The translations under genes were made by a program, and so were the position numbers. The notes beneath the pieces were generated by a model. That model did not search any database, was not told where the DNA came from, and worked only from the letters and a program-made list of their open reading frames with translations. A stretch of DNA of 20,000 nucleotides from the IMG/VR virus record IMGVR_UViG_3300047673_000475; one strand, 5' to 3'. This stretch comes from an uncultured virus (IMG/VR IMGVR_UViG_3300047673_000475). Lineage: Duplodnaviria; Heunggongvirae; Uroviricota; Caudoviricetes. Positions 4,764-20,000 of the stretch are shown here, one piece after another. Position 1 is the first letter of the stretch. Every line of letters begins with the position of its first letter.

Positions 4764-4792
4764 CGGCATAAAGGCGAGGCCGAAGCCCCGCC
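4764..4792 (-). terminator. Hairpin GGCGGGGC-TTCG-GCCTCGCC followed by TTTATGCCG
   Basis: Inverted repeat with a UUCG loop downstream of the 4821-5897 gene. Confidence 0.65.
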
Positions 4793-12045: not shown

Positions 12046-12849
12046 TTACCGATAGCCACCAATCAAACTGCGTACAAAGCGGTTAAACGTTTCGTTGTCG
12101 TTCATGTACGCCACCTTCTGCCAGGTGGTGGCGAGGAACTCCTGATACTGTTCTTCCGCGTCCTTGTACTCCTCGACGATTTCCTTGAACTTACCGATTT
12201 CCTGACCACCCCGGATCTTGCCGATGTCCACCTCGATGACTTGGTCATTGTAGATGTAGGCTTTCACCGCGAGTTCCACCAGCCGACAGAACGGCCGGTA
12301 GCTGCGCATCTGGATGTGCGACATGTTCTCGTCATTGGCGAGAATACAGCGCAGATACACATCAGGGGGCAGCACTATGGTGTCGCGCACCATGATCGTG
12401 TTTTCCCCGATCAACTGCACGCGATGCGTTGAGGTCACGGGCAAGGCCCCGTAGGCGTCCATCACGGCCTGTCCGGCTTGCAGCATGGTCGTGTTCTGCG
12501 CACCCGCGGCCACCCCGTAGCTTGAGACTTTGGTGGGGTCGGCGAACGTGATGTTCAGCACCGACAGAATCGAGCGCCCCTGCGTCTTGGTCTTCGGGAT
12601 GCGATACACCGACGTATAGTCGTTCATCCGCTCGTACGGAATATCGTCCAGATAGACGAATGCTTCCGTGCCACCCACGAGATTGCAGTCCACCAGGACA
12701 CGAGGGCGGACCACTTGTTCCAAAATACATTCGTCGATCGAACGCGGGGCTGTGCGCCAACGGGCCGTGCGCTCGACAAACACCTCTTCCAATACACGCC
12801 GTGGAATCCGGAACTTCAGATCATCCACAGCTCGGGTGATAGGATTCAC
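12046..12849 (-). CDS. Conserved jumbo-phage protein, probably virion structural (phiKZ gp42-like), 267 aa
   Basis: GTG start with a GGAGG SD. The N-terminus (NPITRAVDDLKFRIPRRVLE...VRPRVLVDCNLVGG), C-terminus (AVKAYIYN...GG.EIGKFKEIVEEY.DAEEQY) and location near phuZ recall this family; from memory. Confidence 0.65.
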   Translation of the reverse strand: MNPITRAVDDLKFRIPRRVLEEVFVERTARWRTAPRSIDECILEQVVRPRVLVDCNLVGGTEAFVYLDDIPYERMNDYTSVYRIPKTKTQGRSILSVLNITFADPTKVSSYGVAAGAQNTTMLQAGQAVMDAYGALPVTSTHRVQLIGENTIMVRDTIVLPPDVYLRCILANDENMSHIQMRSYRPFCRLVELAVKAYIYNDQVIEVDIGKIRGGQEIGKFKEIVEEYKDAEEQYQEFLATTWQKVAYMNDNETFNRFVRSLIGGYR

Positions 12850-12903
12850 TCTAGGCCTCCGCTCAAAAAAAGAATCTACATAGGATCGCGTGTTAAAAGT
12901 CGA

Positions 12904-12930
12904 TTGAAAACAATTTCAGACCTATATTAC
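12904..12930 (+). promoter_or_regulatory. Putative phage early promoter, copy 3 (TTGAAAACAATTTCAGACC-TATATTAC)
   Basis: Exact TATATTAC (the phiKZ early consensus) at 12923-12930; upstream part matches 7238-7256. Confidence 0.75.
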
Positions 12931-12986
12931 GCACGTAGACAGAAGCAGAAGCTTCTAAGATTATCTAACCTATCAGGAGCATTACC

Positions 12987-13397
12987 ATGAACAACGTTGC
13001 TAACATCAAGGCTTACGCAGCTAACCTCTCCGCTCTCGTGTACATGAACAAGCACTATGTGGTGGACGAAGTGTCCACCGATGGCGCTACTATCCTGTAC
13101 CGTGTGTCGCAAAACGCCAACGGTGACTTCGTGATTGAAGGATTTCGCGCATCGATGGCTGATGGCGCAAACAAGACTTTCAAGGGCGAACTCGAAGCTG
13201 GCGTGCTGTGGGCCGGTTCCAAGCGCAAGGTGTTTGACTACCTGAACGCGAAGGATCGCCAATCGACGGAACTCACCCCGCTCGAAATGCACTTCCATGA
13301 ATCGAAGTTTGAAGAGTTCTTCATCGCTGAACACAAGCCGATGTCGACCCTCATCATCACGGCTGACGTCCTGAGCTCGGAAGCGGTTGCAGTCTAA
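12987..13397 (+). CDS. Hypothetical early protein (136 aa), monocistronic
   Basis: AGGAG SD; has its own promoter and terminator. Confidence 0.8.
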   Translation: MNNVANIKAYAANLSALVYMNKHYVVDEVSTDGATILYRVSQNANGDFVIEGFRASMADGANKTFKGELEAGVLWAGSKRKVFDYLNAKDRQSTELTPLEMHFHESKFEEFFIAEHKPMSTLIITADVLSSEAVAV

Positions 13398-13398
13398 G

Positions 13399-13425
13399 GT
13401 GCCCGTTTCACCACGGGCATTTTTT
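13399..13425 (+). terminator. Rho-independent terminator
   Basis: GTGCCCGT-TTCACC-ACGGGCAT followed by TTTTT. Confidence 0.8.
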
Positions 13426-13483
13426 ACGAGCACATCCCCTACTATGTAGGAGTGCTTCAATTTGAAAAAACTAGGAAAGAAAC

Positions 13484-14488
13484 ATGTCCGAAATCATCGA
13501 GAAAGTCAAAGGTCGTATCAGCATCTACGCAGCGGGCGGAGCTGGCACGAACATTGCGACGCGCTTCGAGAAGTACCGCGGTAAAGCACAAGCTGGCATG
13601 GCTGTCGTCGAGCCGACGTATATCGACACCAGCAAGTCGAACATGCTCAACGCGAACATCGATGCGAACGCGATCTACCACTTCCAGGGCCTCGACGGTT
13701 CTGGACAAGTGCGCCGCGAACATGCCGCTGTCGTGAAGGAACGCGTCAAGGAAATCCTGCACGCGCACAAGCCGGGTAACCTGGCACTGGTGTTGCATTC
13801 GGCGTCGGGTGGTTCGGGTTCGGTGATCGGCCCGATTCTTACGCAAGAGCTGCTCGCACGTGACGTGCCGGTGGTGGTGGTCATGGTGGGCGATGCCTCG
13901 ACCCGGCTGTACGCGGAGAACACGCTCAACACGATCAAGTCCTACGAAGCCATCGCCAAGGCCGCGGGCGCCCCGATCGTCATCGCCTATCTGCAGAACA
14001 CGCAAGACACCCCGCGCGCTGCGGTGGACGCTGAAATCGAAACCGTCGTGGTCGGCCTCGCTGCGCTCTTTAGCCGCGAGAACACCGAGCTCGATACACG
14101 TGACCTCTACAACTGGTTGCGCTTCGACAAGGTCACCACCTTCAAGCAGCCGATGCTCGCAGGCCTGCACATCGTCAAGAACGGCGAATCGCACGCTCAC
14201 GTGGGCAATGTCATCAGCGTTGCGACGCTGGCGAAAGCGGGCGCTGATGCGACGCTACCGTTCATGCCCGAAGTGCGCTTTCTCGGACTGTTCCCGGCCG
14301 ACATGCCCGAGAACATCGCCAAGGAATCGCCGGTGCATTACATCACGGGCGACCGGGTGATCCACGAAGCCGTGGCCAACGTGCAAAAGGTGCTCTCGCA
14401 CCTGAGCGAGGAACAGCAGTCGCGCGTCGCGCACAAGTCCATTCTGGGCGCAGGCGACCGTGCGGATGAAACGGGGCTGATCCTCTAA
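13484..14488 (+). CDS. phuZ: Phage tubulin PhuZ (tubulin/FtsZ-family GTPase), 334 aa
   Basis: AAGGAGTNIA (T1 loop), YIDTSKSN, GLDGSGQVRRE, SASGGSGSVIGP (tubulin signature), ELDTRDLYNW (T7-like loop), and a short acidic-hydrophobic tail ADETGLIL typical of PhuZ. AGGA SD. Confidence 0.93.
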   Translation: MSEIIEKVKGRISIYAAGGAGTNIATRFEKYRGKAQAGMAVVEPTYIDTSKSNMLNANIDANAIYHFQGLDGSGQVRREHAAVVKERVKEILHAHKPGNLALVLHSASGGSGSVIGPILTQELLARDVPVVVVMVGDASTRLYAENTLNTIKSYEAIAKAAGAPIVIAYLQNTQDTPRAAVDAEIETVVVGLAALFSRENTELDTRDLYNWLRFDKVTTFKQPMLAGLHIVKNGESHAHVGNVISVATLAKAGADATLPFMPEVRFLGLFPADMPENIAKESPVHYITGDRVIHEAVANVQKVLSHLSEEQQSRVAHKSILGAGDRADETGLIL

Positions 14489-14524
14489 CAACAACGCTGG
14501 ACGACACGATAAGGAAAGCAATAA

Positions 14525-15170
14525 GAACCGATGTTTAGCCAGATCAGCTCTCTGGCCCGGTGGTGGTGGTCTGACTTTGGACGGTTTATCTATCACGATT
14601 TTTCGTGGTTCCCGTCCATTCAGGCCGCCGCCACTCGTAAAGTTCATCGGTCCTCACCCTTGCAGGCGCATGCGAGGGTGAATAGACATCATGCGCGACG
14701 TCCCCAGCTGGGGAAGGCAACGCGAGCTAAGGGTGCTCGTAGTACCTTCAGCCATTGAGGCGATGCGCTTGGCCCGTTGACTCGGACCGATGATTTGGCC
14801 ATGCGCAGACTTTAGTCCCATTCCAGCCGAACCGCGCATCAGGCGCAGGGGGTGCATCGGGGGCTAGGGTCTTTTACATTCCGTGAGTAATGGCCTGCCG
14901 CCTACTGGTGCGCAGGAGGCAATAAGTGCGACAGTTTTCAAGGGAGTACCCGAAGCAATTGTTTAGAGGTCCATGGACTGTCTAAAAATTAGCACTAGGG
15001 CCTAACACTTGGCTCGCAGCTTGAGATGTCCAGACCGCCTCAGTTCCGACCGCAACAATACCACAGTCCGTTTTACGGGTAGCTGTTTGGGTGAGCATCG
15101 GACGAGGCGAGTCCCTTTTATGCCTTCCTACGGGAGGGTGCAAAAGGGACTGATTATTTTTTTATGCCGC
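14525..15170 (+). ncRNA. Candidate large structured non-coding RNA 1 (family unknown)
   Basis: Nested stems found by eye: 14527-33/14645-51, 14560-74/14620-34 (15 bp, 3 G-U), 14578-84/14612-18, 14654-64/14671-81, 14685-90/15025-30, 14762-68/14834-40, 15036-41/15104-09, 15110-19/15142-51. No convincing CDS. Confidence 0.6.
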
Positions 15171-15228
15171 AGTTACACAAATAGTCAAAACAAACGTAGC
15201 CGCTGGATACTGTGTATAAGGAGCCGCC

Positions 15229-15636
15229 ATGAACCTCTTAACCGTCGAACCTAGGGCGCTATTGATCCAGGAGATCCATGACTTCCTGAGCGTCTTAAAG
15301 GGCGCTACGAGGGCAGTTGCGAGTCAACTGATCTTCTCCGGGTTGACTGAAGAGCGCTTAATCGAATGGATCGTCAAAGAACAGATTGAGCAGGTGTATC
15401 ATTTGTTCTCGGTGAACCACGACCCGCAGGACTGGCGCTTTGCCCGACTGCATGCCCAGATCCGCTCCGAGTTGGACCTGGATTACTACACCGGCCAATA
15501 CATCAAGGTGCCGCAGCTGTACGGCGACAACTGCTTCATCGACTTAGAAATCCGCGGGATTGACTTGTACATGTGGTACTACGTGCACAATCGCCCTGCC
15601 AATACGAACTACGACTACCAAAGAAAATGGAACTGA
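15229..15636 (+). CDS. Hypothetical protein, array member A (135 aa)
   Basis: TAAGGAG SD; overlaps the next gene. Confidence 0.8.
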   Translation: MNLLTVEPRALLIQEIHDFLSVLKGATRAVASQLIFSGLTEERLIEWIVKEQIEQVYHLFSVNHDPQDWRFARLHAQIRSELDLDYYTGQYIKVPQLYGDNCFIDLEIRGIDLYMWYYVHNRPANTNYDYQRKWN

Positions 15637-16436
15637 AAATCACTGGAACGCTGGTGCTGGATCTGGGAGACTGGGTCGACGCGGTGGAAGCTGCCGCAGG
15701 TCCCTACATGTTGCCCAATCCGGAAGGCTTGTACCTGCCGACTCAGTGTGAGCCGGTGATGGTCGCGGGACAGCCGTATTTCTACGCAGGTGAAGCGGTC
15801 AACAATGTCGCCACACCGATCCCGATTACGTCTTTCGAGTTGCCGTTGCGCGACGAAGTCTACGATGCGAAAGCCGATCTGGTCGTACCCAAGGTGCATC
15901 TGCCGTATCTGAAGCCGCAGTCACGCTTTTCACTGCGCGCACGCAATTTGCTCATCGAGCTGATTGACCACATGGTGATCAACCATGCGAAGTGGTCCAG
16001 CCAAGGCCGGATTCGTCGCGGCCACAAGAAGCTGAATTTCGACGCGGTGATCCGTCCGTTTCTTTTCGAGCAGTTCCAGCGCTCGGGCATCACGGTCGAT
16101 TCGGTGTTCCAGTATCCGAAAGATCCGAATGACGCCAATTTTAGCTGGGGGGAAACCGGCAACATCGTCGCCGTGGAGCATGAACCCACGGATGACCTGG
16201 GCCGCGCGCGCATCTCGGAACAGGACAAGCAACTTTTTTACGCGTCGCAGGAGATCTGTGAGAGCATCACGCTGCAATTGAGCGACATGCTACATCAGTT
16301 GACAGACTTCTTGGGACAAGATCGCTGGATCATGCACTTCATGAAAGTGGATAACACGGTGGTGCGGGTGGAAAAGACCATCGACTATCGGATCTATTCG
16401 TGGATGATGGAGCACGGCCGCGATTTTGAAGATTAA
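15627..16436 (+). CDS. Hypothetical protein, array member B (269 aa)
   Basis: ATG at 15627 (MELKITG...) overlaps the end of A; C-terminal EKTIDYRIYSW. Confidence 0.8.
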   Translation: MELKITGTLVLDLGDWVDAVEAAAGPYMLPNPEGLYLPTQCEPVMVAGQPYFYAGEAVNNVATPIPITSFELPLRDEVYDAKADLVVPKVHLPYLKPQSRFSLRARNLLIELIDHMVINHAKWSSQGRIRRGHKKLNFDAVIRPFLFEQFQRSGITVDSVFQYPKDPNDANFSWGETGNIVAVEHEPTDDLGRARISEQDKQLFYASQEICESITLQLSDMLHQLTDFLGQDRWIMHFMKVDNTVVRVEKTIDYRIYSWMMEHGRDFED

Positions 16437-19127: not shown

Positions 19128-19219
19128 ACGTGGGTTTACCCTAGTTAATTTATATCGCCCATCCGTAATGTTCTGAAGAGAAAGGCCCGGCAAGCCTGTA
19201 CCCTCATCGACAGCAGACC

Positions 19220-19640
19220 TCCTCCTGACTGGTGCCGATAAGGACTCTCGCGCGAGCCCTCCCGCGGGCTACCGCGCCGTATGCCTAGACGCGGGGCTGG
19301 CTTATTCACGCTGCTGGGGTTTCCTCCTTGTTTCCCCTGGCACCAGCGTTTCCTCGTACATCGATCCTACTCCTATCGCTGCTCTGCGCCTCCGCAAGCG
19401 CTCTTTGGCGAATATAGGAGTCTCCTGTGGAAGTTGGTCGATCGCGTGGATTAAGAGTAAGCTGGCCCCTGTCTATCTCGATTTTGGTTGAAGTGGTAGT
19501 GGTAGTAGAGTCTCTGTGGCTCCGAATTGATCGGGCATGTTCAGTGACTGGTTTTCCTTTTCGGTACTTGTAACGACCTGTATTTAGGCGAGGTGGCGGC
19601 CCGAAACCGCTCCTCGCCCTTTTTTCCTTTTTATGCCGCT
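19220..19640 (+). ncRNA. Candidate structured non-coding RNA 2 (family unknown)
   Basis: Nested stems: 19243-48/19507-12, 19268-75/19493-500, 19286-90/19471-75, 19293-307/19455-69 (15 bp, 3 G-U), 19308-13/19344-49, 19369-76/19414-21. Ends in a terminator-like hairpin 19587-19618, a U tract and TATGCCG. The ORF track shows no ORF inside it. Confidence 0.6.
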
Positions 19641-19694
19641 GATTCGTTTTTATTGGGCTCCTTGATCATGTAGGTCGACAAGGAGTAAAACAAA

Positions 19695-20000
19695 GTGTCA
19701 GAAGCGAACAACCCATTTGTACTGGCGCCTTCCCAGTACAAGCGCGATCTAAACGTCCTCGGCTATTATGTCCAGGACTGCGCGACCTATTTGCATCAAA
19801 TGACGGGGGCACCGATCGAGGACTGCACGACCTTTGTGAAAACGGAGATGCGTCCCGGCGGACAGTTTGAATTCAAGGACCCGAAGATCGTCTACCTCGA
19901 GCGTCAGGACAACGGTGACCGGGTCCAGATGGAAGGCACGCTGCAGGCCTACCTGAATGATTCGATCCGTAACAAAGAACTGATTGCGCCGACGCTCACC
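19695..20000 (+). CDS. N-terminus of a probable phiKZ gp50-like DNA polymerase subunit (truncated by the window edge)
   Basis: AAGGAG SD, GTG at 19695, open to the end: MSEANNPFVLAPSQYKRDLNVLGYYVQDCATYL...ERQDNGDR...LIAPTLT. The NPF...YKRDL start and synteny recall this family; no catalytic motif lies within the window. Confidence 0.6.
   Translation, partial: MSEANNPFVLAPSQYKRDLNVLGYYVQDCATYLHQMTGAPIEDCTTFVKTEMRPGGQFEFKDPKIVYLERQDNGDRVQMEGTLQAYLNDSIRNKELIAPTLT

Follow-up and report, generated by a model that had tools for sequence, protein, structure and literature searches.

The DNA analysed here (hereafter the window) is a stretch of 20,000 nt from the IMG/VR record IMGVR_UViG_3300047673_000475, assigned to an uncultured Caudoviricetes virus. 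Its source proved to be a virus related to Burkholderia phage FLC9, a phage of the giant (jumbo) type. On the plus strand, positions 13484–14488 carry phuZ, the gene of a phage tubulin (PHROG 4733 'tubulin PhuZ', E = 1.4e-82; Pfam Tubulin and TubZ_C_2). The window PhuZ aligns end to end with FLC9 gp11, with 61% amino acid identity, and the PhuZ profile covers residues 9–333 of its 334. Between the end of phuZ and the start of the next plus-strand gene (15229–15636, encoding 135 aa) lies a gap of 740 nt, most of which is filled by the element described in this study. A relative of the 135-aa gene was not detectable beside phuZ in RP12 or RTH11, and the limits of the element can therefore not be drawn as those of a clean insertion. 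On the minus strand, two genes ahead of phuZ, the window carries a DUF7484/PHROG 3179 gene (12046–12849), and an ORF of that size was observed at the matching place in FLC9, RP12 and RTH11.

Promoter-like motifs were present on the plus strand upstream of phuZ (TACTATGTA, at 13440) and 12 nt ahead of the 135-aa gene (TACTGTGTA, 15208–15216). With one mismatch allowed, the motif TACTRTGTA had nine matches where 2.8 were expected, a number reached in none of 200 shuffles. The matches include those at 13440, 15208 and 6293 on the plus strand and at 12877 and 4745 on the minus strand, and several lie about 10–35 nt upstream of start codons. Our inference is that TACTRTGTA may mark promoters or leaders in this phage. 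Neither a terminator nor a promoter-like motif was seen in the interval between phuZ and the element. At the far end of the element, positions 15110–15163 of the plus strand hold an intrinsic-terminator-like hairpin, AGUCCCUUUU...AAAAGGGACU, with a C-UACG-G loop (the hairpin itself spans 15110–15151), followed by GAUUA and U7; the G+C-rich hairpin and the U run of an intrinsic terminator are therefore both found there. The hairpin has 18 pairs, one of which covaries (UA/AU), and it is conserved in nine of nine homologous sequences. A rule-based terminator scan of 12800–16000 listed no terminator, this hairpin included, so that it was recognised by reading the sequence and from its fold.

The sequence TTTTATGCCG had six matches against about one expected, among them 15160–15169, 19629–19638, 4764–4773 (minus strand) and 15116–15125; two are placed directly 3′ of terminator hairpins and one within a terminator stem. 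A second ORF-poor gap was noticed at 19128–19694, ahead of the gene starting at 19695. It contains a terminator-like hairpin at about 19588–19622, then TTTTATGCCG, as is the case after the phuZ-linked element. Its folding z-score was only −1.26. Over 97% of its length it shares 68% identity with FLC9, in which a hypothetical protein is annotated at this place.

The stretch after phuZ is a real, conserved, strand-specific multi-domain RNA fold that begins near 14527 and ends with the terminator at 15163. All of its parts lie on the plus strand. The 5′ part is a Y-shaped rod (14527–14651), whose closing helix, ACCGATG (14527–14533) with CATCGGT (14645–14651), holds an AUG when written as RNA (ACCGAUG/CAUCGGU). 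One branch is a side hairpin at 14538–14556, formed by GCCAGA (14538–14543) and TCTGGC (14551–14556). The other is a long arm, made of the helices GTGGTGGTGGTCTGA (14560–14574)/TCAGGCCGCCGCCAC (14620–14634) and TGGACGG (14578–14584)/CCGTCCA (14612–14618), with the cap helix ATCACGA/TCGTGGT; the hairpin that caps the arm lies at 14592–14609. The rod is followed by a conserved multi-hairpin core (14652–15035), which includes a hairpin at 14654–14681, and by a variable peripheral stem-loop domain (15036–15109) closed by CGCCTC (15036–15041) and GAGGCG (15104–15109). A preliminary description of this stretch, made by eye, had proposed eight helices, seven of which, those listed above, were present at the places that it gave and recurred in minimum free energy (MFE) or consensus folds. 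The eighth, the closure of a domain of about 340 nt by GACATC (14685–14690) and GATGTC (15025–15030), was rejected: both segments pair elsewhere in the consensus fold, and two of the six pairs would be lost in the homologue L030 (alignment A3, read by eye).

Folding was compared with that of shuffled sequences. The 740-nt gap gave z = −7.17 on the plus strand and −3.37 on the minus strand, while ten stretches of neighbouring genes, used as controls, ranged from −1.8 to +1.3 on the plus strand. By part, z was −8.4 for the rod, −3.0 for the core and −6.4 for the terminator. Selection on plus-strand RNA had been proposed from the G·U pairs in the main helices, and this proposal was upheld: 21 of the 184 consensus pairs are G·U in the window and would become A·C mismatches on the other strand. 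When six homologues were folded separately, the rod adopted the same Y architecture in each of them (z from −3.3 to −8.4). In the middle of the arm, the sequences of the window and L004 are wholly different and the pairing is still kept. The window rod contains an uninterrupted 17-bp helix; in the other homologues the long helix is broken by bulges.

The position directly downstream of phuZ, pointed out in the preliminary description, is shared by all copies of the element that were identified: it was found directly after phuZ and before the same 135-aa gene in nine of nine distinct sequences. These are FLC9 and uncultured relatives, L007 having been dropped because it is identical to L005. 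The phage collection returned one match, FLC9, with 75% identity over 97% of the gap, and FLC9 carries no annotated feature beneath it. Exact-pattern scans of IMG/VR led to six contigs with the element; three of the nine hits of a 17-mer scan were discarded as chance matches. A scan based on PhuZ added L030 (PhuZ 66% and RNA 70% identical), and an 18-mer scan of metagenomes added L035, the single real hit among 17; the other 16, as well as all 14 hits to genomes, were chance matches. The nearest record, G001, comes from a virus; it is 313 kb long and bears terminal repeats.

The range of the family was assessed with a model, R1, of the best-conserved 158 nt of the element. One copy was detected in G001 and one in FLC9, and no match was obtained in RP12, RTH11, G002/L032, L031 or 19 more distant PhuZ loci. 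Searching those 19 loci by blastn and tblastn recovered only a contig that was already known. In RP12 and RTH11, merely 124–186 nt follow phuZ. Given these negative results with R1, the family is, over the loci searched, confined to a narrow phage clade in which PhuZ is at least 61% identical to the window PhuZ. Six distant contigs (L076, L077, L079, L080, L081 and L089) have 320–600 nt without a plus-strand ORF of at least 70 aa after phuZ. Some of them carry minus-strand ORFs there and none matches R1; these gaps may hold other, unrelated elements.

Compensatory change among the homologues was evaluated with RNAalifold, the covariation expected of a structured RNA being found: the nine sequences gave a consensus of 184 pairs, 41 of which show compensatory double changes. 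Shuffled alignments gave 21.4 ± 2.6 such pairs, and none of 500 shuffles reached 41; sliding the partners by 1–3 columns left 2–9. Over the nine sequences, 97.1% of cells are paired on the consensus structure. The nine sequences represent one narrow clade with a handful of lineages, so that several of the compensatory changes are single inherited events. In the core, the covarying helices occupy alignment columns 145–172, 213–231, 255–301, 375–392, 394–416, 423–435/542–553, 463–511 and 492–503. Compensatory changes pass through G·U intermediates. Loops and junctions contain invariant stretches of 15–30 nt. In the first part of the core (core1, 14652–14809), identity between the window and FLC9 reaches 86%, compared with 68.5% in phuZ DNA and 65% in the gene that follows.

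The peripheral domain behaves differently from the core: its two sequence forms are only 41% identical to each other, and its closing and inner pairs are kept by two-sided changes (CG/GC, UA/CG, AU/GC and AU/UA). The distribution of the two forms (alignment A4, columns 561–639) is out of step with the similarity of the remaining RNA. Since L035 combines an FLC9-type peripheral form with a window-like core, this mixed pattern suggests recombination among these phages.

An unannotated small ORF lies within the element on the plus strand (14531–14758). It would encode a protein of 75 aa with a pI of 12, containing 13 Lys and Arg, six His and four Trp residues and no hydrophobic segment. The ORF is open from the same ATG in nine of nine sequences, has a common stop in eight (in L030 it is six residues longer) and contains an in-frame 3-nt indel among the homologues. 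The rod thus also forms the first 41 of its 75 codons, and codons 42–75 overlap the first 105 nt of the core, where the stop codon sits in a hairpin loop. The structured core runs about 280 nt beyond the stop. A weak Shine-Dalgarno-like AAGAA precedes the start codon; a GGA further upstream is missing in L030.

The two halves of the ORF vary in different ways. In codons 21–41, third positions account for 15 of the 19 variable columns (P = 6e-5), while in codons 42–75 the variable columns are split 9/14/12 among the three positions, with 12 of 35 in third position. The pN/pS ratio of the N-terminal half was 0.28 in the ORF frame, the other two giving 1.02 and 3.28; for the C-terminal half it was 0.82. 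These sums were taken over 10 overlapping sequence pairs from about six lineages, so that the events are not independent. In sliding windows, ratios of 0.17–0.32 were confined, in the ORF frame, to about 14546–14665 (codons ~6–45), and the other two plus-strand frames gave 0.86–6.2. Residues 8–12 (LARWW) and 21–41 (YHDFSWFPS.QAAA.RKVHRS) are kept despite many synonymous changes. Arg codons vary synonymously, with CGG, CGT, CGA and AGG at one site and CGT, CGC and AGA at another. Judged by these substitution patterns, the N-terminal 41 codons are selected as protein. From codon 42 onwards, third positions are invariant and the changes that compensate within hairpins alter amino acids (VNRH to AAMR in L030, for example), which indicates that the constraint there is on RNA and not on protein.

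These results divide the element into two parts. The non-coding reading of the preliminary description does not hold for 14531–14758, occupied by the selected ORF, and holds for the remaining ~400 nt. That description had named real coding sequences across the element as evidence against its own reading; by sequence, one is present at 14531–14758, whereas no coherent reading frame was found in the ~400 nt that follow the ORF. A low pN/pS blip in another frame at 14787–14846 was rejected as coding, being broken by 1-nt indels and stops. Two further candidates were discarded on account of three in-frame stops separating phuZ from the ORF. The first is read-through or hopping: the ORF shares the frame of phuZ, but the stops intervene. 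The second is a group I or II intron, against which it also counts that phuZ is complete without the element.

Comparisons of the small protein gave neither a relative nor a family. A word-indexed search of protein collections returned no homologue, and HMMER over 1.84 billion representatives returned two hits, neither of which was accepted, as both were judged to be translated tandem-repeat artefacts. There were no matches in Pfam and PHROGs and no usable hit in Atlas. AlphaFold2 predicted three helices with a pLDDT of 59.1, a model too poor for a fold search. The protein is hydrophilic in six of six sequences, with a maximum Kyte-Doolittle mean over 19 residues of 0.27 or lower and a GRAVY of −0.6 to −0.9.

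The 3′ strand of the rod's closing helix has a second possible partner. The shared strand UCAUCGGUCC (14644–14653, plus strand) is invariant in nine of nine sequences, third codon positions included, and so is the downstream segment GGACCGAUGA (14784–14793, plus strand), located in the loop of a covariation-supported core hairpin. UCAUCGGUCC can form either 7 bp with the AUG-bearing ACCGAUG (14527–14533) or a perfect 10-bp helix with GGACCGAUGA, and the two options are mutually exclusive. Matches to GRACCGATG in the 20-kb window are limited to the three segments. When each pairing was forced, the two folds differed by 0–4.6 kcal/mol in six of six homologues, and the downstream 10-bp helix is part of the unconstrained MFE fold in FLC9, L030 and L008. 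All three segments are invariant, and covariation therefore favours neither pairing. On the basis of these modelled folds, it is plausible that the three segments act as a switch gating translation of the small ORF; a static pseudoknot or a contact between molecules would explain the downstream pairing equally well.

The preliminary description could not match the stretch by eye to tRNA, tmRNA, RNase P or group I/II intron cores, and the searches agree. None of the 4227 Rfam 15 models, which cover GOLLD, ROOL, OLE, group I/II introns, RNase P, tmRNA and riboswitches among others, matched at gathering score in the 20-kb window, ARAGORN predicted no tRNA or tmRNA gene there, and within 14300–15400 no Rfam 15 match was obtained even at E values up to 10. 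Four homologous loci gave seven Rfam hits, with E values of 0.15–3.9 and all far below gathering score; two of them fall inside the element, where the mir-6644 model hits the terminator hairpin. In the literature, we found no RNA described after phuZ or in FLC9. UTR-derived ncRNA candidates of 89–210 nt are reported from phiKZ and other Pseudomonas phages, and the available portion of that study describes none after phuZ (PMC10914365). As judged from the same portion, the element resembles them as a conserved jumbo-phage RNA from an mRNA 5′ or 3′ UTR, but it is unrelated in sequence, about three times larger and supported by covariation. The element is an undescribed structured RNA that is not simply non-coding.

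Protein-level selection on an ORF and RNA conservation beyond coding need, the two marks of a dual-function RNA, were both found here. With moderate confidence, we propose that the element forms the 3′ end of the phuZ transcript and is a dual-function RNA, in which a gene for a small basic protein is combined with a structured core of about 400 nt ending in a terminator, and in which a switch plausibly gates the gene. Transcription that starts at the phuZ promoter and reads through would produce the RNA, which may then be processed. The rod would fold first and conceal the AUG until the core loop captures the shared strand, so that the state of the folded core would gate synthesis of the small protein. 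What sets that state might be the order of folding, the binding of a factor or the Arg/His-rich protein itself. A translating ribosome would have to melt the first third of the core, and the coding and RNA functions would alternate on one molecule. It is the 105-nt overlap of ORF and core, together with the AUG inside the fold, that argues for such coupling.

Bacterial dual-function RNAs such as RNAIII/hld, SgrS/SgrT, SR1/SR1P and VcdRP, as presented in the available parts of two reviews (PMC12612679, PMC12310071), likewise combine a selected small ORF and an independently conserved RNA structure on one transcript. Measured against what those parts contain, the element differs in its size (~650 nt, where most of the bacterial examples have 100–500 nt), in being phage-encoded and apparently an mRNA 3′ extension, and in having its ORF embedded in and overlapped by the structure instead of beside it.

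An unlikely but still appreciable alternative is that the element, once released from the phuZ transcript, works on its own and in trans as a large ornate RNA which, like GOLLD or ROOL, serves as a scaffold or forms an assembly of RNA only. The two complementary, invariant 10-mers would then be head-to-tail intermolecular contacts, and the ORF would be uncoupled from the RNA function. GOLLD, ROOL and OLE form homo-oligomers, according to the accessible part of PMC12286853, and provide a precedent. GOLLD and ROOL share with the element a length of hundreds of nt, phage-borne occurrence, a multi-hairpin architecture, strongly conserved loops and junctions (here the invariant segments of 15–30 nt, more conserved than the flanking genes) and a function that is not assigned. 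The element, however, gives no match to their or any other Rfam covariance model; its 5′ domain contains an ORF under selection, its place is the 3′ end of a protein gene, and it belongs to one narrow jumbo-phage clade. The 105-nt ORF/core overlap and the AUG in the fold speak for coupling.

It is rather unlikely that the element is an ordinary small gene with a long structured 3′ UTR serving mRNA stability or processing, in which the rod would be an RNase III-type site that sets the fate of phuZ mRNA and the remainder would shield against exonucleases. Retroregulation by lambda sib is a precedent for such a site, and the strong terminator, the uninterrupted 17-bp helix of the window's rod and the placement of the element last in the unit would all fit. 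Such a stabiliser needs neither invariant single-stranded segments of 30 nt nor a core that is more conserved than genes, though, and the bulges in the long helix of other homologues do not suit it; an RNase III cut in the rod would, moreover, destroy the conserved ORF.

More doubtful is a further reading, in which the element would give rise to a self-contained phage RNP, the Arg/His-rich tail of the protein binding its own core, or to RNA oligomers joined through the two invariant 10-mers, and would act in nucleus-and-spindle biology. If true, a particle would be derived from the 3′ end of a tubulin mRNA, and it might, for example, help to localise mRNA or feed back on the synthesis of PhuZ.

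That the RNA is purely non-coding and the ORF fortuitous is improbable. The lack of a convincing ribosome-binding site, the absence of the ORF from public protein sets, where it was never called, and a C-terminal half free of protein-level constraint would be expected in that case, but not the three-base periodicity of substitutions (P = 6e-5), the multi-step synonymous changes at Arg codons, the in-frame indel or an ORF open in all nine sequences.

Just as improbable, by analogy with hok, is a type I toxin-antitoxin-like system, with an inert, folded toxin mRNA that would be activated by refolding. In hok-type mRNAs a long-range helix, one strand of which has a second, competing partner, covers the start codon, and that of the element lies in a similar arrangement. 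The hydrophobic membrane peptide of type I toxins was found in none of the six sequences, however: the peptide is basic and hydrophilic, without a membrane segment. An antisense RNA is not evident, no promoter-like motif being found on the minus strand within 14489–15228 (a result based on the candidate motif), and post-segregational killing would be of no obvious use to a lytic jumbo phage. Finally, an element acting as DNA (an origin, a packaging site or protein-binding palindromes, against which the preliminary description had already argued) has nothing specific in its favour and can practically be dismissed in view of the strand-asymmetric folding with its 21 G·U pairs, the compensatory changes via G·U intermediates and the plus-strand terminator.

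To our knowledge, only a few large structured RNAs have been described from phages, and a function has been assigned to none of them. The element offers a tractable handle on this class, as it is present in single copy in a cultured phage, FLC9, and its selected small ORF is woven into a fold whose choice of pairing is open to compensatory mutants. It also indicates that ORF-free gaps in jumbo-phage annotation can hide RNA genes and small protein genes together, so that such gaps should be examined for covariation and for codon periodicity at the same time. As its place behind the tubulin gene is fixed, one may ask whether the expression of spindle proteins in nucleus-forming phages is controlled at the RNA level.
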